From NCBI GenBank assembly GCA_034437735.1, contig DAOTTS010000118.1, forward strand, positions 7,930 to 71,929: a stretch of DNA of 64,000 nt. The letters run 5' to 3'. Both the position numbers and the translations under genes were made by a program. The notes beneath the pieces are model-generated. The model saw only the letters and a list, made by a program, of their open reading frames with translations, was not told where the DNA came from and searched no databases. This document shows, piece by piece, positions 9,403 to 63,698 of this stretch; the first letter of the stretch is position 1, and every line of letters starts with the position of its first letter. The stretch is from Anaerolineae bacterium (GTDB lineage Bacteria > Chloroflexota > Anaerolineae > B4-G1 > SLSP01).

Positions 9403-10230
9403 TTATTCGTGAATGTTCACCATCGTGCCGACCTCAGCAAAGTGGAAGAGCCACGCCGCCATATCGTTGGGCTGATTGACACAGCCATGACTCATCCGGT
9501 GACCGAAATTTGCGTGCCACGTCACGCCGTGTAATCCGTAACCCTCGTGGAAGTACATCACATACGGCACGTCCTCGATGTAGTAATCCGCCCCTGCCAT
9601 GTCATCGTACCGGAGCTTGATCCAGATCGCATACTGCCCGACCGGCGTGGGCGTCTGGGGAAGCCCGGTCGAGACCAGATACGACTTCACCGGCGTCTTC
9701 CCCACGTAAGCGATCAACCGCTGTTCGGAGAGGTCCACGTCAATCCATCGAAACTCATCATCGATCTTGACCGCCGACGGAATATCCATCCCCATCTCCG
9801 CCGTCGGCTCAGCGGGCGGATCGACGACCACCGTTGGCGGGGTGCTTATCACCTCGGTCGGCGCCGAGGTCGGCACGAGCGTTGGACTCGGCGTCGCCGT
9901 GGGGGGTACCGGCGTGGACGCAGGGGGTGTTGGCGTAGGTGCCAAAGGTGTTGGCGTAGGCGAAGGGGTTGACGTCACCGGGGGTGTCCTGGTCTCAGGA
10001 ACCGTCCCGCTAGGCCCCTTGGTCGCCGGCAGCAGCGGCGTTGCGGTAGGCGATGGAACCAGCGCTTCAGAAGCCTCCGCCGGGCTCGCGTCGAACAGAG
10101 CCATCAGGTTCATCCCGATCGTCAGTGCCAGAGAAAGGACAAAGACGGCGAGCACACCGGTGAATGCAATCATCAGCCAGGAATAAATCTTCTGAATGTG
10201 AATGAGGGCGGGCTCTTCTCGTTTGTGCAT
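9403..10230 (-). CDS. L,D-transpeptidase (YkuD) with TM anchor and Pro/Thr-rich linker
   Basis: C-terminal catalytic motif HRMSHGCVN (His/Cys). Linker PTPTPLAPTPTPPASTP. ATG 10230-10228 preferred over GTG 10233. Confidence 0.85.
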   Translation of the reverse strand: MHKREEPALIHIQKIYSWLMIAFTGVLAVFVLSLALTIGMNLMALFDASPAEASEALVPSPTATPLLPATKGPSGTVPETRTPPVTSTPSPTPTPLAPTPTPPASTPVPPTATPSPTLVPTSAPTEVISTPPTVVVDPPAEPTAEMGMDIPSAVKIDDEFRWIDVDLSEQRLIAYVGKTPVKSYLVSTGLPQTPTPVGQYAIWIKLRYDDMAGADYYIEDVPYVMYFHEGYGLHGVTWHANFGHRMSHGCVNQPNDMAAWLFHFAEVGTMVNIHE

Positions 10231-10269
10231 CACGTATCCTCCAAACGTATCCTCCAGACGTATCCTCCA
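10231..10269. repeat. 3 x 13-bp tandem repeat (minus strand TGGAGGATACGTn), each copy carrying a Shine-Dalgarno, abutting the start codon
   Basis: Plus strand reads cACGTATCCTCCA aACGTATCCTCCA gACGTATCCTCCA. On the minus strand the last GGAGGA lies 6 nt from the ATG of the L,D-transpeptidase. Confidence 0.6.
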
Positions 10270-44122: not shown

Positions 44123-47100
44123 CTAGAAACCCTCCAACTGACTGAGGTCCGCGATACCGGAAGCCAATCCCGCGACGCGCTGCAGCAATGCCAGCCGCGC
44201 TTCACGCACGTTCGGGTCCTCGGCCATCACCAGCACCTCATCGAAAAACCGCTGGATCGGATCGACCAAGGTCTGGAACGTCGTCAGGAAAGCATCCACG
44301 TCGGCGTTCGAATGCATGTGAGCCTCGGCCGCTTCCAGCGCTTCGTAGAGATCGACAGAGGCCGTCTCCTCCAGAACCGAGGCATCCAGTTCGTAGGCCG
44401 GTTGATCGCGCGTGATTCGGACACAGCGCGCATAGTTATCCAGAAGTAGGGACCAATCCTCACGCTCGACCCAATCACTGAGCTGCTCGGCTGCGCGTTG
44501 TGCCTTGATCGGATTATCGCCCTGGGCTGCAAGTGCAGCCTCCACGACGTCATAGGCCAGACCAGCGTCGCGTAACGCACTTCGCAGTCGAGCGATCGTG
44601 AATTCGAGCACCGATGCCTGAATCTCCGCATCTACGACCACGTCCAGGGCGTGACCAGCCCGCTCAAAGAGTTCGGACAGAGAGAGCGAGGTGTTCGTCC
44701 CCAGGAGAATCTGCACGATACCGGAAGCAGCGCGGCGCAACCCGTACGGGTCCGCCGATCCGGTCGGTTCCATGCCCACGGCGAATAGGCCGACGAGGCT
44801 GTCGGCGCGGTCCGCCAACCCTAGGGCAATCCCTGGGTCGCTTTCCGGAAGGTCGTCACCGGCCGAACGGGGCAGATAGTGCTCGTAGATAGCATCGGCA
44901 ACCGCAGCACTCTCTCCTGACCGGCGTGCATATTCCCGTCCCATCACACCCTGCAAACTCGTCATCTCGACCACCATCTTCGTGGCCAGATCGGCCTTGG
45001 CCAGATGTGCCGCCCGTTCCAGAGCGTCTAGCGCCAGGGTGTCAAGGCCTAATCGCCGTCCTATCCAGGGAGCCAACGCCTCGAGGCGCTCGGTCTTCTC
45101 CAACATCGACCCGAGGTCGGCCTGGAACGTGAGTTTTGCCAGATCCTCTCGGAAGCTCTCCAGATGGCGCCGGCAGTCTTGATTATAAAAGAATTCTGCG
45201 TCCGCGTAACGGGCCCGGATCACGTCCTCGTTCCCCTGTCGGACGATATCCAGATGCTCGCGGCCACCGTTTCGAATCGTCACGAAGTACGACAGAATCC
45301 GCCCCCGGCGATCCAACACCGGGAAATACCGCTGATGCTTCTTCATCACCGCAATGAGTACGTCCTGGGGCAAGGTCAGGTACCGCTTTTCAAAGGAACC
45401 GCGTATAGCGGTCGGAACCTCGACGAGATTCGTCACCTCGGTCAGCAGTGCATCGTCATCCGGCAGCACGCCCTCAACCTCAGCCGCGACTTCTTGGGCC
45501 TGGCGCAGGATTTCGTTGCGGCGCTCCTGGGGATCAACTAGGACCCCATAGGAGGACAGCGTCGACACGTAATCCCTGGCAGAGGCCAGAGCGACCTCCG
45601 GGGATCCAACCGGGCGCGGCCCTCGGGTGACGCGCCCGCTCCGCACCCCCGCGTACTCGAGGGGAATCACCCGTTCATCCAGAAGACAGACCAACCAGCG
45701 GATGGGCCGGCTGAAAGCAACCTGCGTGGCGTTCCACCGCATCGAACGCGGTACGTGGAGGTCCGCGATCCAATCGACCGATGCCTCTTGCAGAACCTCG
45801 GAGGCGGGGCGTCCCTCGACCTTCTGCTCCATGACGACATACTTCCCGCCGTCCATCTCCACTACCCTCAGGTCTTCGACAGATCCACCCCGCGATCGTG
45901 CGAACCCCTCGGCTGCCCGGGTGGGTTCCCCATCGTCGTCATAAGCCACCTGAGCCGGCGGCCCTTTCACTACCCGTTCCTCATCGGACTGGCGGGAGGC
46001 CAGATTCTCCACAAAGATAACGAGACGACGCGGCGTCCCCCAGACGTGAACGTCCTCATAATCCAATCGCAGCGTATTCAGGGCCTCTGGGACGCGCCGG
46101 CGAAGTTGAGCCAGCAGATGGGAAAGATGACCTGCCGGAAGCTCCTCGGTTCCAATCTCAAAGAGGAAGGGGACCCGGCCTTCCGGCTGCGGTCCTAGGG
46201 ACCGCTCCTCCCGTTCGCGGAGCGGAAGATGCATCAGGCGCCCATCGACGACAGGAGCTTCGGTCAGACCCGGACGATCTAGCCACGGGTTCTCCGCGTT
46301 CTCACGTTGGGCGAGATAGGCATCCGCGACGCGGCGGGTGAGGTCCCGCATCCGCTTGAAGAAGGCCGCTCTCTCCTTGACCCCGACCGTTCCCCGGGAG
46401 TCCAGAAGGTTGAAGGTGTGCGAACAGCGCAGAATATAGTCGAGCGCCGGCACCACCAACCCGTGCTCCATAGCCATCAGTGCTTCCTGCTCGAACAGTT
46501 CGTACATATGTTGAAGCCGCTCGACGCCCGCAAGCTCAAACTCGTACCGGCAGTAATCCACCTCTTGATCCCGCAGGATCTCACCGTAGGTGTGTGTGTC
46601 ATCCCAGAGGATATCCCACACGGACCTTTTGCGCTGAAGGTACATCACGATGCGTTCGAGACCATAGGTGATCTCCACGGAGGGAACGTCCAATGGGATG
46701 CCGCCCGCCTGCTGGAAATACGTATACTGGGTGATCTCCTGACCATCGAGCCAGACCTCCCAACCCAGCCCCCAGGCGCCGATCACCGGGCTCTCCCAGT
46801 TATCCTCGACAAAACGGATGTCGTGCTCCTCACGGCGGATTCCTAACGCGGCCAGGCTCTCCAGATATCGCTCCTGAGGATCGCCGGGGTCCGGCTTGAG
46901 GATAACCTGGAATTGGGTATGCATCTGCATGCGATTGGGATTCTCGGCGTATCGCCCATCATCCGGGCGATAGGAAGGTTCCACATAGCCCACGTTCCAC
47001 GGCTCAGGGCCCAGAACCCGTAAGACCGTCGCGGGGTTCATCGTGCCGGCGCCCAGCTTCTCACTGTATGGCTGCCATATAAGCGCCCCTTGATCCGACC

Positions 47101-47152
47101 AATAACGCTGCAAACGCAATATAGCCTCTTGAAACGTCAGCATACTCAGCAT
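44123..47152 (-). CDS. glyQS: glycine--tRNA ligase, fused alpha-beta subunits (GlyQ-GlyS)
   Basis: N-terminal 290 aa match GlyQ ([12 protein letters not shown]...). The remainder matches GlyS with anticodon-binding domain. Single 1009-aa ORF. Confidence 0.9.
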
Positions 47153-52397: not shown

Positions 52398-52928
52398 ATG
52401 AGCCTCTTAGGCGACCAGTCAATGGGTTCACCTGTGCAGGAACATCCGGCGCACATAGCGAACGATCTGCAATGGATTAGCGGCAACCTTGAGACGTTAG
52501 GAAATCCCAATAACTACATCAATCAGGAAGATCAGGATATCCTGAGGGTCAATAGCGCTGAAATTGCCCCTTGGACGTTCACGGGATTGCCAGCCAGCCA
52601 GGCGCCCAAGGTTATGATCCGGCGATCAAACATCCAATTCGTGATCTTTCACGGCGAGGAGGCCCTAGAGCAGTTCAGAGAAGCACCACGTACCGCATCC
52701 TTGATCCTCAACTTATCCTTGGTCATCGTCAGAGGTCAGGCGCCTCTGATGAGCGAGGCGAAGGAGGATAACTTCCTCGATTTCTGGAAAGGGGATTTCA
52801 TCCCCATCTCGGATGCGAGTCTTTATTACCTGGCCGAAGCGCCTGTCGATATTCCCACCACGACAGAGCTCCTATACCTGAACGCGAACCAGATCCAGAG
52901 CTACGTGCAGACGTACGTGCAGACGTAA
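52398..52928 (+). CDS. hypothetical protein (lower-GC ORF, no recognisable family)
   Basis: Strong RBS GAAGGAGGG. About 52% GC against about 61% for flanking genes. Ends with tandemly duplicated TACGTGCAGACG (YVQTYVQT). Confidence 0.5.
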   Translation: MSLLGDQSMGSPVQEHPAHIANDLQWISGNLETLGNPNNYINQEDQDILRVNSAEIAPWTFTGLPASQAPKVMIRRSNIQFVIFHGEEALEQFREAPRTASLILNLSLVIVRGQAPLMSEAKEDNFLDFWKGDFIPISDASLYYLAEAPVDIPTTTELLYLNANQIQSYVQTYVQT

Positions 52929-53028: not shown

Positions 53029-53898
53029 ATGGCTGAAGAGATTAAAATCGGTATCATCGGGGGTTCGGGTCTTTACAAGATGCAGGGCGTTGAGTTGGTA
53101 CGGGAGGTCTCGGTGGATACCCCCTTTGGCCCCCCCAGCGACGCCATTCTGGTCACCAAGATCGAAGGTATACCGGTGGCTTTTCTCTCGCGCCACGGTC
53201 GCGGCCACGTGCACGCCCCAACAGAAGTACCCTACCGCGCCAACATCTATGCGCTCAAGAAGATAGGCGTCAGCACGATTATTAGCGTATCTGCGTGCGG
53301 ATCACTCAGAGAGCATCTCAAGCCCGGTCACTTCGTGATACCCGATCAAGTCTTTGACTTCACAAACCAGAGAGCACGATCGTTCTTCGGCGACGGATGG
53401 GTGGCGCATATCTCTGTGGCGGATCCCTATTGCGCGACCCTCTCCTCGGAGGTCGCGGACGCCGTCGAGGAAGCGGGCGGCACGACCCATCGTGGCGGGC
53501 AGTTTATCACGATTGAGGGACCTCGATTTAGCACCAAGAGCGAAAGCCGCGTCTTCCGATCCTGGGGTATGGACATCATCGGCATGACAGCCAGCCCGGA
53601 GGTCTTCCTGGCCCGTGAAGCCGGCATCTGCTATGCGACCATTGCCCACATCACGGATTATGACGTCTGGCACGAAGCGGAGGATCCGGTCACGGTCGAG
53701 ATGGTAGTCCGGCAGCTACAGACGAACGTGAAGATCGCCCAGCAAGCAATTCGGGCTCTCGTGCCCGACCTTAATTTGCTGAACCTCGAGGCGTGCGAGT
53801 GCCGGAATGCGTTAAAGGACGCTTCGATCACGGATCCTGATAAGATCCCCGAAGAAACACAAAAGAAACTGGAGCTTCTGGCGCGGGGACAGGGATAG
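53029..53898 (+). CDS. mtnP: S-methyl-5'-thioadenosine phosphorylase (PNP/MTAP family)
   Basis: IGIIGGSGLY, MTASPE and hexameric MTAP-type motifs. Confidence 0.85.
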   Translation: MAEEIKIGIIGGSGLYKMQGVELVREVSVDTPFGPPSDAILVTKIEGIPVAFLSRHGRGHVHAPTEVPYRANIYALKKIGVSTIISVSACGSLREHLKPGHFVIPDQVFDFTNQRARSFFGDGWVAHISVADPYCATLSSEVADAVEEAGGTTHRGGQFITIEGPRFSTKSESRVFRSWGMDIIGMTASPEVFLAREAGICYATIAHITDYDVWHEAEDPVTVEMVVRQLQTNVKIAQQAIRALVPDLNLLNLEACECRNALKDASITDPDKIPEETQKKLELLARGQG

Positions 53899-54008: not shown

Positions 54009-56675
54009 ATGAGTACCCAACCTATTCGTCGACTTCGGCTTGTGTTGACCCAAGAAACGGCGGGCACCCTGATGATGGTTCTCGCCGCGCTCTTTGTGGT
54101 CAGCGGCGCCGTGACCCTTTACGTTGCCCCCTTCCCAACCAATCTCACCTTGGGCCACCTCATCGCCATGGTGAGCAGCTGGGGGATCGCGTGGGGTGGC
54201 AGCTATGCGATCCTGCGTTGGCAGTCACGGCGAGTTGACCCATTGATCCTGCCTATCGCCGCGTTCCTGACCGGTTGGGGACTTCTGCTGCAAGCCCGGT
54301 TGGCCCCCCCTTTTATGTTACGCCAGATCATCTGGCTGATACTGGGATGTACAGCGATGACCCTCCTGACGTTGACGAGGAAGCTATCCAGGTTCCTCCG
54401 CCGGTATCGCTATACGTTGCTGACAGCCGGAATTCTTCTGCTGGCAACGACGCTTGTCTTTGGCGTCAATCCATCCGGCTTCGGACAGCGACTCTGGTTG
54501 GGCCTCCGAGGTATCTACGTCCAACCGTCAGAGATCCTGAAGCTCCTCCTGGTTGTCTATCTGGCCGCTTACCTTTCGGAGAGACGGGATCTCATTCAGG
54601 CGGAGAGCGAGGGACAATCCCTCTGGCTGATCGTCCTCGGACCTATGCTGGCGATGGTGGGGTTGGCGCTGCTGCTGGTAGGATGGCAGCAGGATCTAGG
54701 GGCAGCCCTGCTATTTTATCTCACCTTCGCGACGATGATACAGTTGGCGTGGGGAAAGCCGGTCTATACACTCCTGAGCCTCCTGCTCTTCATCCCTGTG
54801 GTCGTGGCGGGGTATATCCTGTCGGCCCGGGTCGCCCACCGTATTAGCATCTGGCTCAACCCCTGGACGCCGGAACAGGCAGATCGAGCCTTTCAAATCC
54901 TGCAATCACTCTTTGCACTCGGGGCCGGCGGGCTCTTCGGCCAGGGGCTTGGGCAGGGGGTGCCCACGCTCATCCCGGCGGTTCACACCGATTTTGTCTT
55001 CTCCGCCCTCGTCGAGGAATTCGGATTGGTAGGAGGAATTGGCCTCATACTCGGTTTCGCAGCGTTAGCCCAGAGAGGGATCCGCCTCGCCCGTCGTTCA
55101 TCATCCACCTTCGAATCGTTATTGGCCGGTGGCTTAACAGCCCTCCTCTGCATTCAGAGCTGGGTCATTATCGGCGGCAACATCAAACTTATCCCAATCA
55201 CTGGCGTTACCTTGCCCTTTCTCAGTTACGGCGGATCATCCCTGTTGACGACGCTTATCGTGACCGGTATTCTGCTTAACCTTTCAGCCCCCCACCCGCC
55301 GCCCCTTAAACTGAGCCTTTCCCCCCAGACCAAGAATCCGCCTTCTCGCACGGTCGGACACCTCGGTCAGGGTTTGTTGGTGATGATGCTCAGCCTGGCT
55401 TTGATGAACGGCCTGTGGTCGGTAGGCCGTGCGAACTGGCTGAACAACTATCCCAGTAATCCCAGACCCATCCTTCAGGAAGCACGCATCCAACGGGGCG
55501 ACATCCTTGATCGAAACGGAACCGTCCTCGCGGGCATATACATGGGCCCGGCGGGTTACATCGAACGGACATATCCTGTCCCCGAGGCGGCCCCGGTGAT
55601 CGGATACACGAGCATAGAATACGGAACTGAGGGCGTTGAAGCCATCTGCGACCTCCGGCTGCGCGGGGATACTGACCGCACGGAATGGGAGCGAGCGGTC
55701 GATCGCATTCTCCACCGGGATCCCAGCGGGCAGAGCGTCCGTCTCACCGTGGATGCCGATCTCCAGGCTTTAGCTCAGGAACGCCTGCGCGGACTCGAGG
55801 GAGCTGCCGTCCTGATCGATGCCCGGACCGGTGAAATCCTGGCGTTAGCGTCCTCCCCGACGTACAATCCAGGCGCTGTAGCTGAGGATTGGGAGTCGCT
55901 CCGCAGCGCAGAGGACGCCCCCCTGCTCAATCGAGCGACACAGGGACTCACGCAGCCTGGTCTGATCCTCGCGCCGGCCATACTGGCGGAGGCCTGGGAT
56001 CAAGGGTATGCCGAGACACCCCCGGGGCCGATCAACGCGACGATCGCAGTCAATGGCGATGAGGTCGGATGTGTCAGCCGGCCCGCGACGACGAGCTGGC
56101 GGAGCGCCCTCACCTCCCAATGTCCGGCACCGTTCGCGCAGGTCGGCGCGGAGTTGGGGCAAGAGCGCATAACCGGCGCATTTGGGACCTGGGAGCTGTT
56201 GGATCCACCACAATTCGCGCTGCCCACGGTAGCGAGCGAGTACGAACCGACCTCGGCCGATGGGGCGACCGAGGCCATCGGCCAAGGCAACCTACTCATC
56301 ACGCCGCTTCAAGCGGTCCGGATCGCTGCAATCCTAGCCAATGAGGGCAAGATGCCGGCCCTTCAACTGATCAAAGAGCCATCAGATGGTTGCCGGCTCG
56401 GACAATCCTCCGGCGATCGACGGGTCATCACGCCCGATCGGGCGGAACAATTGCTGCGTCTCCTTCCCGAACACGGTCAAAGCGTCGGGCTTTCAGAATA
56501 TGCATTGGCCGGATCCAATCGGGTGCAAAATTGGTTTCTGGGCTTGAATTCGGAACGTGTTCCCCGTTATGCCGTTGCCGTCCTGGTCAGCCGGACGAGA
56601 CGCAGTGATGAAGCGAAAGAGATCGGTCAAATACTGCTTCAACAGGTCGTTGGGCTGCCCGAGACGAATTCGTAA
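54009..56675 (+). CDS. SEDS (FtsW/RodA) glycosyltransferase fused to a class-B PBP-like periplasmic domain with degenerate active site
   Basis: The N-terminal 430 aa hold about 10 TM helices with SEDS motifs. The C-terminal domain matches the bPBP dimerisation and transpeptidase fold (GEILALASSPTYNPG), but PGSTFK is replaced by PGLILA (no Ser, no Lys) and no KTG triad is found. Confidence 0.7.
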   Translation: MSTQPIRRLRLVLTQETAGTLMMVLAALFVVSGAVTLYVAPFPTNLTLGHLIAMVSSWGIAWGGSYAILRWQSRRVDPLILPIAAFLTGWGLLLQARLAPPFMLRQIIWLILGCTAMTLLTLTRKLSRFLRRYRYTLLTAGILLLATTLVFGVNPSGFGQRLWLGLRGIYVQPSEILKLLLVVYLAAYLSERRDLIQAESEGQSLWLIVLGPMLAMVGLALLLVGWQQDLGAALLFYLTFATMIQLAWGKPVYTLLSLLLFIPVVVAGYILSARVAHRISIWLNPWTPEQADRAFQILQSLFALGAGGLFGQGLGQGVPTLIPAVHTDFVFSALVEEFGLVGGIGLILGFAALAQRGIRLARRSSSTFESLLAGGLTALLCIQSWVIIGGNIKLIPITGVTLPFLSYGGSSLLTTLIVTGILLNLSAPHPPPLKLSLSPQTKNPPSRTVGHLGQGLLVMMLSLALMNGLWSVGRANWLNNYPSNPRPILQEARIQRGDILDRNGTVLAGIYMGPAGYIERTYPVPEAAPVIGYTSIEYGTEGVEAICDLRLRGDTDRTEWERAVDRILHRDPSGQSVRLTVDADLQALAQERLRGLEGAAVLIDARTGEILALASSPTYNPGAVAEDWESLRSAEDAPLLNRATQGLTQPGLILAPAILAEAWDQGYAETPPGPINATIAVNGDEVGCVSRPATTSWRSALTSQCPAPFAQVGAELGQERITGAFGTWELLDPPQFALPTVASEYEPTSADGATEAIGQGNLLITPLQAVRIAAILANEGKMPALQLIKEPSDGCRLGQSSGDRRVITPDRAEQLLRLLPEHGQSVGLSEYALAGSNRVQNWFLGLNSERVPRYAVAVLVSRTRRSDEAKEIGQILLQQVVGLPETNS

Positions 56676-56872: not shown

Positions 56873-57574
56873 ATGACCGAAACGATTCTTCTGATTGAGG
56901 ACGACGAGGCACTGGCGCAACTGGTTCAGTTGCTGCTGGAGCGCGCCGGATATGAGGTGGTTGCAACGAATAACGGTGAGCAAGGCCTGGAAGTGGCCCG
57001 CAACGAACCACCGAGTCTAGTTCTGTTGGACATCTTGATGCCGGATATGGATGGCTGGCACGTATACGAAGCGCTTCGGCGTCTGACCGATGCACCGATA
57101 CTCTTCCTGACGGCCCTGGGAGACGAGCACAACATCACCTATGGCCTGGGGTTAGGCGCGGATGACTACATCGTGAAGCCTTTTGGCTACAAGGAGCTGG
57201 TCACCCGCGTGAAGGCCGCCCTCGCCCGAGCACGGCGTACGCGCGGAGAGCAGATGACCTTCGAGACCGGAAATATGCAGGTTAACCTGGATACCCACGA
57301 CGTCAAGATTGAGGACCGGACCGTCAGCTTGACACCCACCGAGTTTGATCTGCTATCCGCCCTGATCCAGGATGCCGGTCGCACCGTAAGCCATGATACC
57401 CTGCTCCGCCGAGTCTGGGGGCCCGAGTATTCCAATCGACGCGATTACCTGAAGCTTTACATCTGGTATCTGCGTCAAAAGATTGAGTCGGATCCCAAAA
57501 ACCCAACCCGCATCCTCAGTGAGCGCGGACAAGGATATCGCTTAGTGGTGGAGCCTCAAGAGGCGCAAGCATGA
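56873..57574 (+). CDS. OmpR/PhoB-family response regulator
   Basis: Receiver domain with DD, D (LLDILMPDMDG) and K. Winged-helix output domain. No histidine kinase gene adjacent. Confidence 0.9.
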   Translation: MTETILLIEDDEALAQLVQLLLERAGYEVVATNNGEQGLEVARNEPPSLVLLDILMPDMDGWHVYEALRRLTDAPILFLTALGDEHNITYGLGLGADDYIVKPFGYKELVTRVKAALARARRTRGEQMTFETGNMQVNLDTHDVKIEDRTVSLTPTEFDLLSALIQDAGRTVSHDTLLRRVWGPEYSNRRDYLKLYIWYLRQKIESDPKNPTRILSERGQGYRLVVEPQEAQA

Positions 57575-57673: not shown

Positions 57674-60175
57674 GTGCTGGCGTTTGAACTCCTCCAGCGC
57701 AACCGTGGATGGAGCTTTGATTTTCTCTCCGCTCTTATCGGGGCGCTCTTTGCCTGGCTACTCGCCGCGTTACTCTACGCCTATCGAAAGAAGATCAAGC
57801 AGGCTTTTGAGAAGCTATGGGCGCCTATTGCCGCCTGGCGGCGGCGCGTCCGAGCCAGCCAGGAAGAAAAATACCTCCGAGCCCTTAAACCGAGGCTTTC
57901 ATCGCTTCTCTTCCTCGAGCCATCCGACCCGAACCTCCTGTTCTGTCCCCCCGCTTTTGAGGCGGTGCCTGCCCTCCCCGCAACCATCCAACAGAGCCGG
58001 GATATCCCTCAGACAATTGAGGTTCCGTACCGAAATCTATTTCTGGGTCATAATCGCGTCGTAGTGACCGGACCCCAGGACTCGGGGCGGACGATGACGA
58101 TGGCTGTGACGGCATGGCAAGCCTATGGGCCCTCAGAGAATGATCAACAGGAAAACCTTGGCCGGTTGCCGATATGGATCGACTTGGCTCGGCTGGATCA
58201 GCTCGAACGGGATCCGGAGGCCGATCCAGCCGAGCAGATTGCGCAGTTGGCCATCCTCTTTATGCCTCAGTTGTTAACCAAGTGGATCGTCCGGCACCTG
58301 ACAGATGAGCCGTGCCTCATTCTTCTTGATAACTGGTCTGCGCTCTCGGAGGAGGATCAACAACAGGTCGCAGCATGGATTGAGACCGCGGCGGAAAGCT
58401 TCGAGGATCCCTTCTGGCTGGTTGCCGCAGACGAAACAGGATATGGCGCCCTGACCAAGATTGGATTTGTTACCTCGAGAATCCAGCCGCAACCTGATGA
58501 TTTGTGGCTGAGGAAGGTGATCGACGGATGGACGGAGATTTACGCTGAGAACCTAAAGACAGACATACAGACAGACATACAGACAGACACACAGACAGAT
58601 ACCGAAGAAGCGTCAATATCGGGCCCGGAAACCCCAGAGCTTTTTGACACCTTGCACGAGGCCCTGGAAAATCGAGCCCCCCTCTGGGAGTTTCATCTGC
58701 GGACGGCACTCTTTCTCCGAACCCAGACCATAACCGAACATCCCAAAGATACCATCGAGCAGTGGATTGAGGAAGAAATCCCCCTGCCTACCCTGGGAGA
58801 TGAAGAGGAAGACCGCATATCAGAGGAGCTCGCCCGGCAGTTAGCCCGCGAAGTTCTGCTTGAGTTTGCACGGAGACAGCGACTGGAGCAAGAGACGCTT
58901 GACACGCGTGGGATGCGGGAACTCGTCGAATCCTATCTCCCAGATGAGGAGGAACGGCACGCCAAGCTCGAATCCACCGTACAGCGGCTCCTCGTTGATG
59001 CGACCTTCTTGAAACGACGGTCGGATAGAACGTGGGCGTTCAGTCATCCAATATGGACCGATTACTTCACCGCCTGCCACCTTCTTGACACCGAGGATGG
59101 ATATGACGTCGTTCTCGACCATCTTTTCGATCCCACGTGGTCGAGAATTGTGAGCTTCTTCGCGACACAAGCGGATGCCTTGGACCTCGTCAGAGAGTTG
59201 TTGAGCCCGAGACGGAGGGAGCCTAAAGTGCCTCGCCTTCTTAGGGCGACGTCTTGGGCAGTCGACACGCCAACCGAAACCCCATGGCGGCGAACTCTGA
59301 TGAAAGCCTTGGCCCAAAGTTTTATGAACAAAGCGTCGGACTTGGCGGATCGTTTGATCGTAGGGCGCGCCCTGGTCCAAGTCGTGGGGCGAAGTGCCCG
59401 CGCTTTTTTTCTGAAGATGCTGCAACAGCCATCCCTCGACGTTCGCATTGCGGCCATTCGCGGGCTCGGATGGTGTGGCAATCCTCAGGATATGCGGATC
59501 TTGGGAGCTGCCCTCCGAGATGAGAACCAGGATCTACGAAGTGCTGCCGTGCGGTCGCTCCGGGATATGGGGACACCTGGAGCAACCACGTTCCTCGGCG
59601 AGAGCCTCGATCAAGTCGATGAGGCCTTGATGCTCGTGATCGCCGACGCCCTGGCGGAGTTACCGGAAGGACCGCAGGCCCTCATCGATGCAGCCGACCA
59701 TCCCGACCTTCTCGTTCGGCGTGCGGTCGCACAGGGACTTGGGAATATTGATCAGGAGTGGGCCGAGAAAAAGCTGGTTGAGATGATAAAGCAGGATCCT
59801 GAGTGGCTGGTTCGATCGGCCGCGGAATCAGCACTCGAGGCAAAAGAGGATCAGAAAGCCCAGCAGGCCACGATCCCAGCCCCTCCCAAGATCGATGAAA
59901 TCGAATGGTTGATGACGTGGGCGGCAGAACAGGGGATGGGCCTCGGCGTGGGTGAAGCTGCCATCGACACGTTGGTCTTGGCCGCGCAAGAGGGGCGGGA
60001 TGACGTCAAGGTACTTAGCGCATTGACCCTTGCCAGGATCGGTGACGAATCCCACATTGCCATCCTGGAAGCAATGCTTGAGGGAAGCGCTGCCTCCGTT
60101 CAAGTTGTCGCGACGCAGGGATTACAGGAGCTTCGGCGGCGATATCCTCATCGAGCTTTAGAAGCGGAAGAGTGA
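57674..60175 (+). CDS. membrane-anchored P-loop NTPase-like / HEAT-repeat (PBS lyase-type) protein
   Basis: N-terminal TM helix. Walker-A-like GPQDSGRT (Lys to Arg) and Walker-B-like LILLDNW. Several C-terminal HEAT repeats (DVRIAAIRGLGW, DLRSAAVRSLRDMG, LLVRRAVAQGLGN). GTG start with GGAGG RBS. Confidence 0.6.
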   Translation: MLAFELLQRNRGWSFDFLSALIGALFAWLLAALLYAYRKKIKQAFEKLWAPIAAWRRRVRASQEEKYLRALKPRLSSLLFLEPSDPNLLFCPPAFEAVPALPATIQQSRDIPQTIEVPYRNLFLGHNRVVVTGPQDSGRTMTMAVTAWQAYGPSENDQQENLGRLPIWIDLARLDQLERDPEADPAEQIAQLAILFMPQLLTKWIVRHLTDEPCLILLDNWSALSEEDQQQVAAWIETAAESFEDPFWLVAADETGYGALTKIGFVTSRIQPQPDDLWLRKVIDGWTEIYAENLKTDIQTDIQTDTQTDTEEASISGPETPELFDTLHEALENRAPLWEFHLRTALFLRTQTITEHPKDTIEQWIEEEIPLPTLGDEEEDRISEELARQLAREVLLEFARRQRLEQETLDTRGMRELVESYLPDEEERHAKLESTVQRLLVDATFLKRRSDRTWAFSHPIWTDYFTACHLLDTEDGYDVVLDHLFDPTWSRIVSFFATQADALDLVRELLSPRRREPKVPRLLRATSWAVDTPTETPWRRTLMKALAQSFMNKASDLADRLIVGRALVQVVGRSARAFFLKMLQQPSLDVRIAAIRGLGWCGNPQDMRILGAALRDENQDLRSAAVRSLRDMGTPGATTFLGESLDQVDEALMLVIADALAELPEGPQALIDAADHPDLLVRRAVAQGLGNIDQEWAEKKLVEMIKQDPEWLVRSAAESALEAKEDQKAQQATIPAPPKIDEIEWLMTWAAEQGMGLGVGEAAIDTLVLAAQEGRDDVKVLSALTLARIGDESHIAILEAMLEGSAASVQVVATQGLQELRRRYPHRALEAEE
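58557..58603 (+). repeat. in-frame 12-bp tandem repeat AGACAGACATAC x about 4 (encodes TDIQTDIQTDTQTDT)
   Basis: Direct tandem copies with single-base variants inside the HEAT-repeat protein gene. Confidence 0.7.
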
Positions 60176-60181
60176 CAGAGG

Positions 60182-60979
60182 CTAAGACTCAGGCTGCCAG
60201 GCGACCTCGCGTCCATCACCCAGCAGAAGCTCTCGCGTGAGGGCAAGGTATGCCATCGCGCCGCTGGAACGGGGCGCATAGAGAACCCCCGGTTCACCAT
60301 AACTCGGCGCCTCGCTCAACCTGACGCTACGCGGAATGACCGTGTCGAACACGTGATCCGTATAGTGTCCCTTAACCTCTTGAATCACCTCCTTGGATAG
60401 GGTCGTCCGGGCGTCGGACATCGTCAGCACCAGACCACGAAGGGAGAGGCTTGGGTTGAGCCCACGCTTGACCAGCTGGATCGTGCGCATAAGCTGCGAC
60501 AAGCCTTCGAGAGCGAGATATTCACACTGCACGGGCACCACCACGGCGTGGGCTGCGACCAGGGCGTTGACGGTCAATATCCCCAAACTGGGAGGAGAGT
60601 CGATCAGGACGTATGCGTACGCCTCTAGGAGTGCCGACAACGTCTGTCGCAAGCGCTGAACCCGTTGAACGGGCAAGAGCTGATTGAGCTCCACAGCGAC
60701 CCCGGCCACCGAAGGCGTACTGGGGAGGAGGTCGAGGCGATCCCAGTCCGTGGAAAGGACGGCATCCTGAGCAGCAAGCTCTTCCAAAAGCACCTCGTAG
60801 ATCGAGGTCTCCAACGTCCGCGCATCAAATCCCAAGCTCGTAGTCGCGTTACTCTGCGGATCGACGTCGATCACCAAAACGTTGTATCCCCAATCAGCCA
60901 TGACGGCTCCGACATTGACCACCGTCGTCGTCTTGCCGACACCACCCTTCTGATTCGCAAACGCGTAACAAGTAGTCAA
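60182..60979 (-). CDS. parA: ParA/Soj-family ATPase
   Basis: Deviant Walker A KGGVGKTT. TTG start. No parB gene adjacent. Confidence 0.8.
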   Translation of the reverse strand: MTTCYAFANQKGGVGKTTTVVNVGAVMADWGYNVLVIDVDPQSNATTSLGFDARTLETSIYEVLLEELAAQDAVLSTDWDRLDLLPSTPSVAGVAVELNQLLPVQRVQRLRQTLSALLEAYAYVLIDSPPSLGILTVNALVAAHAVVVPVQCEYLALEGLSQLMRTIQLVKRGLNPSLSLRGLVLTMSDARTTLSKEVIQEVKGHYTDHVFDTVIPRSVRLSEAPSYGEPGVLYAPRSSGAMAYLALTRELLLGDGREVAWQPES

Positions 60980-61031
60980 CGCTCAATCCCTCACATCGAA
61001 GTTGGAGAACAACGAACCTTAATCAATCGTA

Positions 61032-61826
61032 TCACGACCAGGTCTCCGCGCAAATCCGAATCTCGTCAGATCGCGGCATCGAGGCTAACCCTCGACGGGA
61101 CACCGAGTGCGCAGCGACACACGAGGCAAACCGAACTGCAACGTCAGGCGCATGCCCCGCTGCGACCTGGGTGAAAAAGCAGGTGGCGAAGATATCCCCG
61201 GCACCGGTGGGATCCACCTCCTGGACCGTAGGCGCCGAAAAATTTGAGGATCGTCCAGACTCAAAGAGAACACCGCCGAGCCATCCCTGGGTCACGACCA
61301 GTAATTCGGTCTGTTGAGCGTAGGTATCGATCAACGACCAGTTATGTCCCACGTCCTCCAGGCTCAACACAACAGCCGAGGCACGAGCGAGCCAGTTACC
61401 TGCACCTTTCCATTCCCGGGGATGAATCCGCCCGGATGCATCTCGGACGCGCAACCATCCCTGAGGCGTGACACCCAGAAAGGTATTGGGGCCAAAAGCT
61501 CCCTGCAAATCTGGGAGACACTCGTGCAAAATAGGGCCGATATGGGCGATCGTTGGTTCGCGCCAAGCATGAGGTAAATGCGCAGCCGTTATAGGCTCCG
61601 CAAATGCGTAGGCGACCTGCGTCCGGTTCCCATCCCAGTATTGGTTTTCAAACGTCGTAGTTGAGTCGGCGGGGATGCGAACGACGTCGACGCGATCGCG
61701 CAAAACGGACAAATCGCATGAGGCCGACGCACTCGTCAGGATCCCCGTATCGTGTCCCAAAGCCGACGCCGTGACCGCCGCATAAGAGACCGTCCCCCCC
61801 AACACGGGAGCCTCAGCATGGGGCAA
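61032..61826 (-). CDS. PfkB-family carbohydrate kinase; N-terminus lacks a canonical start codon (possible CTG start at 61874 or truncation)
   Basis: DPTGAGD motif. The conserved N-terminal block DYLVVGHITHDLL lies upstream of the first TTG in the same frame. There is no ATG or GTG between the TAG at 61890 and that TTG. Confidence 0.65.
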   Translation of the reverse strand: MPHAEAPVLGGTVSYAAVTASALGHDTGILTSASASCDLSVLRDRVDVVRIPADSTTTFENQYWDGNRTQVAYAFAEPITAAHLPHAWREPTIAHIGPILHECLPDLQGAFGPNTFLGVTPQGWLRVRDASGRIHPREWKGAGNWLARASAVVLSLEDVGHNWSLIDTYAQQTELLVVTQGWLGGVLFESGRSSNFSAPTVQEVDPTGAGDIFATCFFTQVAAGHAPDVAVRFASCVAAHSVSRRGLASMPRSDEIRICAETWS

Positions 61827-61889
61827 CAGGTCGTGTGTAATGTGACCAACGACGAGATAATCGACCGTCCTCAGCGCGCGTCGTCCCCT

Positions 61890-62831
61890 CTAGCTGGAGG
61901 AGTCCGCACCCTGCGGAATAATCGTAACCGATCGGCTGCGTCCCCGTCCTACACTCTCGGTCGTGACGCGATCATCCCGGCGCAGCGTGATATGAACGAT
62001 CCGGCGCTCGTGGGCGGGCATCGACCGCATGCGGACGGTCTTCCCAGTCTCAATCGCCTTTTTCGCTTGCCGTTTAGCCAAGTCCTCCAGGCTCCGCCGC
62101 CGGCGTTTGCGGTAGGCATCCGCATCGACGACGAGGTTATACTCACCGTCCAATCGATGGTAAGTCAATGCCCGGAAGAGATACTGAAGGGAATGAAGGG
62201 TTCGGGATCGCGATCCAACCAGAGCGCTCGCGTCTTTGCCGTCAATGGCCACCCACAGCGTTGGACGGTCCTCCTGTAACCATTCAAGGTTAACGTCGAC
62301 GTCCAAATCCTGCAGGAGACCCGCCGCCACATCTCGAACGACCGCTTCCAACTCAGACCGTTTAACACCGCCGACGACCTCAGGCATAGAAGGCTCTTGC
62401 TCCGGTTGGGCTGCCTTGTCGGGCTTCCTGGTATCGTCCGGCGTAGGTTGGCTAGGCTTAGGGGGCTCCGGCTTCTGTGAAACCTGAGGCTTCTGCTTAC
62501 CCTCTACCGGCTCGCTGGAGACGCGCGGCTGCTCATCCGCCTCAATCTGCACATCGGGGGCATGGTCTGACGGCCCTGAGTCAGGTTCTAGTTCTGCAAT
62601 ATCTTGAGGCGGTTCAGAGGGTGCTGACTCCCTGGATTGACGTTCCTCTTCGGTTAAACGCCTAACCCGCACTCGCGCCTCCCGGGCACCCAATCCCAGG
62701 AATCCACGACTCCCTTCATCCAGAACCTCAATATCCACTTCATCACGAAGAGCCGTGAGTTTGATCAAACCCAAACTAACGGCTTCATCAACAGAAGGAG
62801 CTGAGACGACAACAGAATCCTCGGAACTCAT
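61890..62831 (-). CDS. khpB: Jag/KhpB RNA-binding protein (Jag_N, KH, R3H) with low-complexity acidic/Pro linker
   Basis: N-terminal Jag_N (VSAPSVDEAVSLGL). C-terminal KH and R3H (HERRIVHITL). RBS GAGGAGG. Confidence 0.8.
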   Translation of the reverse strand: MSSEDSVVVSAPSVDEAVSLGLIKLTALRDEVDIEVLDEGSRGFLGLGAREARVRVRRLTEEERQSRESAPSEPPQDIAELEPDSGPSDHAPDVQIEADEQPRVSSEPVEGKQKPQVSQKPEPPKPSQPTPDDTRKPDKAAQPEQEPSMPEVVGGVKRSELEAVVRDVAAGLLQDLDVDVNLEWLQEDRPTLWVAIDGKDASALVGSRSRTLHSLQYLFRALTYHRLDGEYNLVVDADAYRKRRRRSLEDLAKRQAKKAIETGKTVRMRSMPAHERRIVHITLRRDDRVTTESVGRGRSRSVTIIPQGADSSS

Positions 62832-62945
62832 CAGTCAAATCCTCCTCAATAAAATCAATGGTACCAATGCTAGGCAGCTCAGATGTTAAAATAACGCTGT
62901 CTAGTACTTGCGGTTTATCAACGTCTCGCCAATAACTCAAACGCA

Positions 62946-63698
62946 CTAGGTGGCGCGGGTTCGGGCCAATTCCTTGTCGGTCGAGGTGGCATCGGAATGC
63001 TCATAGTGCCGGCGGAATAGGAAATACTGAAGAATACCGACCAAGTTCGAGATCAGGAAGTAGACGGCTAAGCCGGAAGCGTAGGTTGCAGCGAAAAAGC
63101 CCGTCATTAACGGCATCATAATCTGCATCTGCTTGCTCATCGCAGCCGATTGCGCATCGGTCGCCGGCGGGGTGAGTAGTTTCTGATAGTACCAGGCGCT
63201 AATAACGACGAGGACCGGCAGAATGTAGTAGGGATCCGGCAGTGCCAGATCCAGCCAAAGAAATTGGCTCTTGAGTGGAATGAGTTGACTGATACCCGGG
63301 ATCCAGCGATAGATATCATCGGGCAGCGCAAGAAGCTGCAACGGTGTCGAAGCCAACGTACGGATAATAGCCTGATAGAGGCCGATCATAAGCGGTAGCT
63401 GAATGACGAGCGTCAGACAACCACCGACCGGCTGCACACCAGCCTCCTGATAGAGCTTCATCTGCGCCTGAGCGAGCTTCTCACGATCATCCTTGTATTT
63501 CTTCTGAAGCTCTTCCAACTTCGGTCGCAACGCCTGCTGCTTGCGAGCGCTCTTCTGCTGATTGAGTTGGAGCGGTGTCAGCGCGAGCCGCAGAAGCAGC
63601 GTCACCATCGCGACAGCGACAATCGTTTCGTTGCCCAGATAACGGTAGAGCAACAAGAGAAGATTAATAATGGGTCGTATAATGAGTGTATCCCACAC
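62946..63698 (-). CDS. yidC: membrane protein insertase YidC (short form)
   Basis: Five TM helices. 60 kDa inner-membrane insertase motifs. GTG start with AGGGGGA RBS. Confidence 0.85.
   Translation of the reverse strand: MWDTLIIRPIINLLLLLYRYLGNETIVAVAMVTLLLRLALTPLQLNQQKSARKQQALRPKLEELQKKYKDDREKLAQAQMKLYQEAGVQPVGGCLTLVIQLPLMIGLYQAIIRTLASTPLQLLALPDDIYRWIPGISQLIPLKSQFLWLDLALPDPYYILPVLVVISAWYYQKLLTPPATDAQSAAMSKQMQIMMPLMTGFFAATYASGLAVYFLISNLVGILQYFLFRRHYEHSDATSTDKELARTRAT

Follow-up and report, generated by a model that had tools for sequence, protein, structure and literature searches.

Current models treat SEDS polymerases and penicillin-binding proteins of class B (bPBPs) as coupled two-activity machines in which glycan polymerisation and cross-linking go together, which raises the question of what is left for the penicillin-binding protein (PBP) partner to do once its catalytic residues are gone. 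The question is posed by a gene on the plus strand of a 64,000-nt stretch of Anaerolineae bacterium DNA (assembly GCA_034437735.1, contig DAOTTS010000118.1, positions 7,930 to 71,929; hereafter the window), whose 888-aa product joins a SEDS domain to a PbpA-type module in which all three transpeptidase motifs are degenerate. Judged from sequence comparisons and structural models, this module has probably been kept as a natural pseudo-bPBP that activates or scaffolds its SEDS partner, with cross-linking supplied in trans.

Domain architecture of the fusion protein

The gene is a single uninterrupted open reading frame (ORF) with an ATG start, in which the SEDS domain is followed by an extra transmembrane (TM) helix, a PbpA-type dimerisation domain and a transpeptidase (TP) fold (Table 1). 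An alternative start at position 54042 would give 877 aa, the length of the 100% identical database copy (P0001), which is called 11 codons downstream. Matches exceeded the Pfam cut-offs for FTSW_RODA_SPOVE (PF01098, residues 102-427, E = 3.8e-72, 243.7 bits versus 26.4), PBP_dimer_2 of the PbpA type (PF21922, residues 496-577, E = 2.6e-11, 44 bits versus 27) and Transpeptidase (PF00905, residues 598-864, E = 1.2e-22, 81 bits versus 22.1). In an AlphaFold2 (AF2) model built from 65 homologs, the mean predicted local distance difference test score (pLDDT) is 85.2 and most of the PBP module scores above 90; a Foldseek search with this model matched the PBP part to the fold of Mycobacterium tuberculosis PbpA with target-normalised TM-scores of 0.76-0.79. 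The structures closest to the PBP half in sequence are likewise of the PbpA class (4mnr, 4jbf, 4ra7 and M. tuberculosis PbpA 3lo7/3un7).

Pfam, structure matches and AF2 thus agree with the original prediction, made from the sequence alone, that one 888-aa ORF joins a SEDS membrane domain to a bPBP-like fold, and the structure prediction that it had proposed gave a confident PbpA-like fold. Two of its details need amendment. The dimerisation/transpeptidase fold is present, but its N-terminal part is the PbpA-type PF21922 domain, with the classical pedestal domain PF03717 scoring below its Pfam threshold in this protein. The TM helices ascribed to the SEDS domain are accompanied by one more, at residues 446-479 of the AF2 model (hydrophobic segments at 448-473), which corresponds to the membrane anchor of a bPBP. 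The linker that bridges the former SEDS C-terminus and the former PBP N-terminus lies in a region where pLDDT means of 10-residue blocks are 54-67 (residues 431-450). With its TM anchor, PF21922 and PF00905 domains, the module has the fold and architecture of PbpA-subtype class B PBPs, and with a glycosyltransferase and a bPBP module in a single polypeptide the whole protein has the layout of SEDS-bPBP fusion synthases.

Intact SEDS signatures

Along its full length, the SEDS half resembles FtsW (8p1u) and RodA (6pl5 and 8tj3) in phmmer comparisons (E 1e-28 to 1e-33), and its PF01098 score as well as its HTD and SYGG motifs mark it as a SEDS protein. Four signatures are intact, namely H326-T-D328, Q172-P-S-E-x-L-K178 (including E175 and K178), Q-x-D229-L-G and, in extracellular loop 5, S406-Y-G-G-S-S. 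Among 121 fused homologs H-[TS]-D-F is invariant, and QPSExLK, QxDLG and SYGGSS are nearly so. The HTD and SYGG residues are the equivalents of D297, Y379 and G380 of Escherichia coli FtsW, in which the first motif reads H295-T296-D297, the D297A variant is non-functional and substitution at any of the three positions abolishes function (PMC8765783). Judging by these residues, the SEDS module is apparently a competent glycan polymerase.

Loss of the three transpeptidase motifs

The sequence PGLILA had been predicted to stand at the SxxK position, with neither the nucleophilic Ser nor the Lys, and this reading held. In residue-level alignments, PGLILA (650-655) sits opposite the PGSTFK/PGSSFK of 4mnr, 4jbf and 3lo7, so that L652 replaces Ser and A655 replaces Lys; these two columns contain S and K in 66/66 intact relatives, and A/T/G and Q/E/A in the motif-less (dead) clade to which the module belongs. 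Opposite the S-C-N of M. tuberculosis PbpA we found S703-Q-C-P706, with Q704 for Ser, P706 for Asn and C705 retained, and x-C-P occupies the SxN site in 92% of the dead clade versus S-C-N in intact relatives. The predicted absence of a KTG triad is borne out by an alignment of 294 sequences, the 66 intact ones included, in which G827-L-S-E-Y-A832 faces G-K-T-G-T-A, with L828 at the Lys position and L828-S-E830 opposite the triad. Placement of the KTG site at L833-A-G835 was dropped in favour of this alignment with the intact relatives. His occupies the KTG-Lys position in most of the dead family, and Leu in the 888-aa fusion.

A string search of residues 470-888 of the fusion returned no SxxK, TxxK, SxN or K[ST]G, so the domain has no intact SxxK displaced to another site. 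Sporadic SxxK strings do occur in 12 of 121 homologs, at non-conserved positions. The fusion protein therefore lacks SxxK, SxN and K(T/S)G alike, the motifs of class B PBPs, and, with the transpeptidase motifs missing, it does not combine the two competent modules of a bifunctional SEDS-bPBP synthase.

It could be argued that the module still catalyses transpeptidation, or another acyl transfer or hydrolysis, with non-canonical residues, given that its fold is fully preserved at high model confidence and that in some members Ser/Thr takes the nucleophile position and His that of the KTG Lys. We regard this as very unlikely: the nucleophile position is not conserved across the dead clade (A 28%, T 18%, G 17%), the subclade of the 888-aa fusion has L/M..A at SxxK and L-S-E at KTG, and the fusion itself combines Leu at the nucleophile position and Ala at the general base with Q-C-P and L-S-E, has only 3 Lys in the 419 residues searched and contains no alternative motif.

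Four cysteines of the extracytoplasmic PBP module, C547, C688, C705 and C795 (55647-55649, 56070-56072, 56121-56123 and 56391-56393), are invariant or near-invariant in the fused subclade, and disulfides among them are possible. C705 stems from the ancestral S-C-N motif and is likewise conserved in intact relatives; C547 is found only in the fused subclade, with F/Y/L at this position elsewhere.

Distribution of the motif-less module in Chloroflexota

A search covering 5.8 billion proteins gave 1258 matches, of which the best 120 were examined. These are 51-100% identical to the fusion, come from Anaerolineae or Chloroflexota where named and all have the three-domain fused form; every one (120/120) lacks the SxxK Lys, has x-C-P for SxN and lacks the KTG Lys. 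When the PBP module alone was searched with HMMER against 1.84 billion cluster representatives (50% identity), 413 matches fell below 1e-30. Among the best 150 of these, ~140 are motif-less (30 fused, ~90 of 400-519 aa and 8 of intermediate length) and only 6 have SxxK, SxN and KTG intact (3 of the 6 being fused). A scan of GTDB at one genome per species with a PBP-module alignment found 247 relatives, and the locus counts given here use the best 80. All 80 come from Chloroflexota metagenome-assembled genomes (MAGs), spread over Anaerolineae, Anaerolineales, Thermoflexia/Thermoflexales and Ardenticatenia/Ardenticatenaceae, and all are motif-less (80/80).

The PBP module is in frame with SEDS in ~50 of the 80 loci and is a separate gene directly 3' of SEDS in ~20; the remainder are cut by contig ends, with two loci showing no upstream SEDS in the little sequence available. 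At individual unfused loci, either 1 nt separates the SEDS stop from the PBP start or the two genes share 4 nt. The survey of related genomes that had been proposed thus recovered the same architecture in all 120 of the closest homologs and in ~50 species-representative genomes. Since frame and motif loss recur together in 120 homologs and 80 genomes, the fusion is neither a chance event nor a product of assembly. Stand-alone pseudo-PbpAs were not retained as a general class: one apparent case (P0121) is located at the end of a contig and could be a fusion cut short there, and the others prove to be separate genes behind a SEDS gene.

Order of catalytic loss and fusion

When 294 PBP modules (228 motif-less and 66 intact) were placed in a neighbour-joining tree, one split set 226 of the motif-less sequences apart from the whole intact group. 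The remaining two, P0226 and P0266, keep SCN and have only a Lys substitution. This topology indicates that the loss occurred once, early in a large Chloroflexota lineage of the class Anaerolineae. Parsimony on the dead clade gives an unfused root state, and fused proteins make up 77 of the 85 leaves in the subclade of the 888-aa protein, with scattered further fusions elsewhere; the minimum of 24 changes between fused and unfused states is inflated by truncated entries. From the unfused root and the fused subclade, it follows that catalytic loss came first and fusion later. Because the two genes adjoin or share 4 nt, fusion would have been an easy step. The closest fused relatives with intact motifs (P0185, P0190 and P0260) are placed outside the dead clade.

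The gene order of the locus gives a second line of comparison. A homolog of the MTAP-like phosphorylase gene upstream of the fusion is adjacent in 43 of the 80 pseudo-PbpA loci and also in two loci with intact PbpA (L086 and L091). The order MTAP-SEDS-PbpA is common to the window, to unfused dead loci (L064 and L066) and to the loci of intact P0299 and P0292 (Anaerolineae MAGs GCA_034431435.1 and GCA_039810265.1), whose SEDS proteins are 44% identical to the window SEDS, a value within the range of the SEDS partners of unfused dead PbpAs. By gene order and sequence, the locus is orthologous to an active, unfused MTAP-SEDS-PbpA pair of other Anaerolineae.

Several loci showed additional features. 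One MAG, N6_304 (DAOUES01), carries two MTAP-SEDS-pseudo-PbpA loci with identical gene order (L059 and L061), which we did not use as evidence of paralogy because a mixed bin is as likely as a recent duplication. A Chloroflexota-like contig (L101) contains an FhaA-FhaB-PP2C-SEDS-PbpA-PASTA kinase operon with intact PbpA, followed by a fused GlyQS gene; the window likewise encodes fused glycyl-tRNA synthetase alpha and beta subunits (44123-47152, minus strand, 1009 aa), 7 kb upstream of the SEDS-PBP gene. At another locus (L102, 15470-17217), a dead fusion is followed, 3-4 kb downstream, by genes for a Ser/Thr protein kinase and an FHA + Trans_reg_C protein, and these may be a remnant of the FHA/kinase context of intact PbpA seen in L101.

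Selection on the motif-less domain

Ratios of nonsynonymous to synonymous substitution rates (dN/dS), calculated by the Nei-Gojobori method for 14 close pairs of fused genes, are 0.11-0.33 for the pseudo-TP domain, 0.07-0.28 for SEDS and 0.085-0.24 for the pedestal. When mean pairwise identity in the dead clade is divided by that in intact relatives, the ratio is 0.97 for the TM anchor, 0.91 for the pedestal, 0.82 for the first part of the TP domain and 0.59-0.68 for the cleft-forming regions; the positions that both clades conserve cluster in the TM/juxtamembrane segment and the pedestal and where the TP domain begins. At the catalytic columns (S, K, S, N, K, T and G), conservation is 100% in intact relatives, and the dead clade shows variable replacements. 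The dead domain is thus under purifying selection that is relaxed around the former active site.

These values bear on the view that the feature is biologically meaningless, either because the dead PBP is decaying or because the fusion results from misassembly or a frameshift. It is true that the TP domain is less conserved than SEDS (mean pairwise identity 51% versus 67%) and that some stand-alone database entries are contig-end truncations, as P0121 may be. However, the frame is open in >120 independent assemblies and ~50 species-representative genomes, which rules out an assembly join or frameshift as the origin of the fusion, and a decaying pseudogene is ruled out by the dN/dS of the pseudo-TP domain, far below 1, and by synteny that holds down to 57% identity. 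With a confident AF2 model as well, we give this explanation almost no credence.

An alternative that accepts the loss of catalysis is that the pseudo-TP domain has been repurposed as a sensor of ligands such as stem peptides or Lipid II, gating SEDS or signalling to the OmpR-type regulator and HEAT-repeat membrane protein encoded next to it. The cleft-forming regions are under purifying selection (dN/dS 0.11-0.33), new residues are conserved at the old motif sites across the family (Y-Q-P-G, x-C-P and G-H-x-G), and in the subclade of the fusion the genes conserved directly downstream encode the response regulator and a HEAT-repeat protein of 800 aa. Yet these neighbours are kept in close relatives only (response regulator homolog in 4/80 loci, HEAT-repeat protein in 0/80), and the residues at the motif positions vary widely in the clade, unlike those of a defined binding site, and are hydrophobic in the subclade of the fusion. 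We consider a sensor role unlikely, and the retention of the domain as a partner of SEDS the better account.

Comparison with known SEDS-bPBP systems

The original prediction had laid emphasis on the covalent fusion as an unusual feature of this protein. A 2025 study catalogued 117 InterPro proteins with bPBP transpeptidase and SEDS domains, read as putative bifunctional synthases, and includes a 931-aa protein of Senegalimassilia faecalis (Coriobacteriales) with the same SEDS/PBPA_dimer/TPase composition; SxxK and active sites are unmentioned in its text (PMC12516126). With such fusions on record, with motif loss predating fusion and with many members unfused, that emphasis is not supported. 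The fusion architecture is thus already published, and the clade-wide catalytic loss is unreported as far as we found: our search of the literature, incomplete in its coverage and hence giving absence of evidence only, returned neither a PbpA clade described as catalytically dead in nature nor a Chloroflexota PBP reported to have lost its active site.

The SEDS-PbpA fusions of Coriobacteriia (Eggerthella lenta 4mnr; Atopobium parvulum 4jbf, 4n1x and 4ra7) share the domain order of the window protein and are the top sequence matches to its PBP module in the Protein Data Bank (PDB), with E values of 1e-25 to 1e-29 and target-normalised TM-scores of 0.75-0.79. Their PDB titles describe a 'D,D-transpeptidase domain of peptidoglycan glycosyltransferase' (4mnr) and a 'putative peptidoglycan glycosyltransferase' with several beta-lactams (A. 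parvulum), and from these titles and the PGSTFK/PGSSFK motifs the entries are most likely TP domains of active fusions. In contrast to these proteins, which keep SxxK and were crystallised with penicillins and cephalosporins according to the entry titles, the window clade is without all three motifs.

The best fold match, M. tuberculosis PbpA (3lo7 and 3un7), is of the same bPBP subtype, and the Cys of its S-C-N is the one kept as C705. M. tuberculosis has separate RodA and PbpA genes in an FhaA-FhaB-PstP-RodA-PbpA-PknA/B operon, whereas in the window the two are fused and kinase, phosphatase and FHA genes are not adjacent. Its PbpA is also active, forming beta-lactam acyl-enzymes according to PDB titles, whereas the PBP module of the window is predicted to be non-catalytic.

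A closer functional analogy is offered by laboratory variants. Dead Bacillus subtilis PBP2b* (with PBP3) and Clostridioides difficile SpoVD S311A (also with PBP3) support their SEDS partners while the other PBP compensates for cross-linking (PMC12713402). In both cases it is the bPBP protein, and not its transpeptidase activity, that SEDS needs, as we propose for the window module. These variants are point mutants of active enzymes, whereas the loss in the window clade is natural, extends to all motifs, and is ancient and fixed in the lineage.

In comparison with the RodA-PBP2 and FtsW-FtsI complexes (6pl5, 8tj3 and 8p1u), the window SEDS aligns full-length with HTD and SYGGSS conserved, and the contacts expected from these complexes, between SEDS and the TM helix and pedestal of the bPBP, fall on the segments of the dead module that are conserved best. 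Unlike them, the window protein is one polypeptide, has a PbpA-type pedestal instead of PF03717 and carries a partner that is probably non-catalytic. A further comparison is with 2572 pedestal-only bPBP-like proteins without a transpeptidase domain, some of them from Chloroflexota (PMC12516126). Such proteins are likewise unable to cross-link and may act only through the part that interacts with SEDS, but they have lost the transpeptidase domain entirely, whereas the window clade keeps the whole TP fold under purifying selection.

Proposed function and sources of cross-linking

SEDS polymerases depend on a bPBP partner for activity, and PBP2 reportedly activates RodA. We propose that the PBP module of the fusion, having lost its motifs, can no longer form an acyl-enzyme and would neither cross-link nor bind beta-lactams. 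It would have been retained because the SEDS polymerase needs the TM helix and pedestal contacts of its partner for activity and placement. The fusion would fix a 1:1 SEDS:PBP stoichiometry, and cross-linking of the glycan strands would fall to an enzyme acting in trans, whether an active PbpA-type bPBP encoded by an orphan gene, a class A PBP or an L,D-transpeptidase (LDT). The earlier suggestion that the PBP part serves as an activator or scaffold only fits a dead module that is fused or adjacent to an intact SEDS, is under purifying selection and keeps the constraint on anchor and pedestal.

Several points weigh against this reading. The inactivity of the PBP module is deduced solely from the loss of its motifs, and most family members are polar at the sites of these motifs (A/T/S..Q/E and H-x-G), so that a non-canonical activity in them is formally conceivable. 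The former cleft regions, although relaxed, are clearly under purifying selection; as the cleft is still constrained, the domain is probably more than an inert spacer and may bind something. The SEDS part falls below the NCBIfam cut-offs for both FtsW (TIGR02614, 258.4 versus 337.5 bits) and RodA (TIGR02210, 207.1 versus 336.7 bits), so that it can be called only a member of the SEDS family, unassigned to elongation or division. Among the loci compared, a dead fusion and an active transpeptidase were not found together in one assembly or contig, and neither the 64-kb window nor the flanks of related loci contain a second PBP or SEDS.

As a source of cross-links, an L,D-transpeptidase encoded elsewhere in the window had been put forward. 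The gene (9403-10233, minus strand) does encode a real YkuD protein (Pfam E = 1.6e-22) that carries the SHGC signature of the active site, a hydrophobic N-terminal segment and a long linker rich in Pro and Thr, so this part of the suggestion stands. The proposed link to the synthase finds no support: the gene lies 44 kb from the SEDS-PBP gene among unrelated sugar-metabolism genes, and no LDT homolog occurs within 10 kb at any of the 80 related loci (0/80). LDTs also need tetrapeptide donors and are usually auxiliary, and Anaerolineales MAGs encode both a class A PBP and orphan PbpA-type bPBPs with intact motifs. That cross-linking is carried out specifically by this enzyme, which would give a 3-3 cross-linked wall, therefore seems improbable to us.

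The orphan genes in question (P0379 and P0396) are intact PbpA-type genes without adjacent SEDS in related MAGs. Proteins like P0379 are annotated in Ardenticatenales/Ardenticatenaceae, a group that also has dead pairs (L066 and L067). In an Anaerolineales MAG (L093, JACKAZ010000009.1), a gene at 1-1605 encodes a 1119-aa class A PBP (Transgly + Transpeptidase + Big_7) 8 kb from the orphan P0396, which shows that Anaerolineales have other potential cross-linking enzymes. Orphan intact PbpA-type bPBPs together with a class A PBP are at least as plausible as cross-linkers as the LDT.

If the PBP module is indeed a pseudo-bPBP held as a partner of SEDS, the dead clade would repeat in nature, at great age and over a wide range, the dead-bPBP experiments, whose point mutants hint that the bPBP as a protein counts for more than the transpeptidation it performs: the chemistry was discarded, and the partner was kept and eventually fused. 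The clade would also give a conservation map of the bPBP surfaces that SEDS needs independently of catalysis. Domain-based labels such as 'bifunctional synthase', 'penicillin-binding protein 2' and 'FtsI family' over-call transpeptidases in Chloroflexota, and this synthase is predicted to be intrinsically insensitive to beta-lactams. A more far-reaching possibility, which we offer as a speculation with the odds against it, is an Anaerolineae lineage in which polymerisation and cross-linking are permanently uncoupled at this synthase, with cross-links made only in trans or by LDTs and the PBP fold given a new non-catalytic role, for example in stem-peptide sensing.

Table 1. Coordinates of the SEDS-pseudo-PbpA gene, its domains and motifs, and the synteny anchor in the window
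Feature	Coordinates	Strand	Basis
Whole gene, SEDS-pseudo-PbpA fusion	54009..56675	+	ORF list, Pfam domains, P0001, AF2 mean pLDDT 85.2
SEDS (FtsW/RodA/SpoVE) glycosyltransferase domain, polytopic membrane, ~aa 15-427	54051..55289	+	PF01098 E 3.8e-72, phmmer, AF2 helices
H326-T327-D328, putative catalytic Asp motif, extracellular loop 4, intact	54984..54992	+	Aligned with HTD of P. aeruginosa FtsW and T. thermophilus RodA
Pro-rich cytoplasmic linker, aa 428-445, PHPPPLKLSLSPQTKNPP	55290..55343	+	AF2 low-confidence stretch without secondary structure
Extra TM helix, aa 446-479, bPBP membrane anchor	55344..55445	+	AF2 helix, hydrophobicity, conservation ratio 0.97
PbpA-type dimerisation / pedestal-equivalent domain, aa 484-590	55458..55778	+	PF21922 E 2.6e-11, conservation ratio 0.91, dN/dS 0.085-0.24
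Pseudo-transpeptidase domain, aa 598-882, penicillin-binding fold without catalytic residues	55800..56654	+	PF00905 E 1.2e-22, Foldseek, pLDDT, dN/dS 0.11-0.33
Degenerate SxxK, P650-G-L-I-L-A655	55956..55973	+	Alignment to 4mnr, 4jbf, 3lo7 and 66 intact relatives
Degenerate SxN, S703-Q-C-P706	56115..56126	+	Alignment to SCN of M. tuberculosis PbpA
Degenerate KTG on strand beta3, G827-L-S-E-Y-A832	56487..56504	+	66 intact relatives, AF2 strand 825-835
MTAP-like phosphorylase gene, synteny anchor, no functional link claimed	53029..53898	+	PF01048

Genomic neighbourhood

Directly downstream of the fusion gene are genes for an OmpR-type response regulator (56873-57574, plus strand) and an 800-830-aa HEAT-repeat protein with an N-terminal hydrophobic segment (57674-60175, plus strand). 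The pair is kept in three related loci (L001, L002 and L103), down to 55-57% identity of the fusion. No cognate histidine kinase gene is adjacent to the regulator, and a regulatory link of the pair to the synthase is possible. The genes that follow on the minus strand (60182-63698) encode a ParA-like ATPase, a PfkB-like protein, Jag/R3H and YidC, and in relatives (L001 and L103) continue with YidD, RNase P protein and ribosomal protein L34; given this replication-origin-type gene set, the fusion gene is probably origin-proximal.

Farther upstream, two paralogous DRL-type oxidoreductase genes (PF21135; 13534-14832 and 18057-19400, both on the minus strand) flank an FGGY sugar kinase gene, near a fucose-isomerase-like gene and a sugar-binding regulator, and the region is probably a sugar or polyol catabolic cluster. 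Short in-frame repeats were seen in two proteins of the window, at the C-terminus of a conserved hypothetical protein (52398-52928, plus strand; YVQTYVQT) and internally in the HEAT-repeat protein (TDIQTDIQTDTQTDT).

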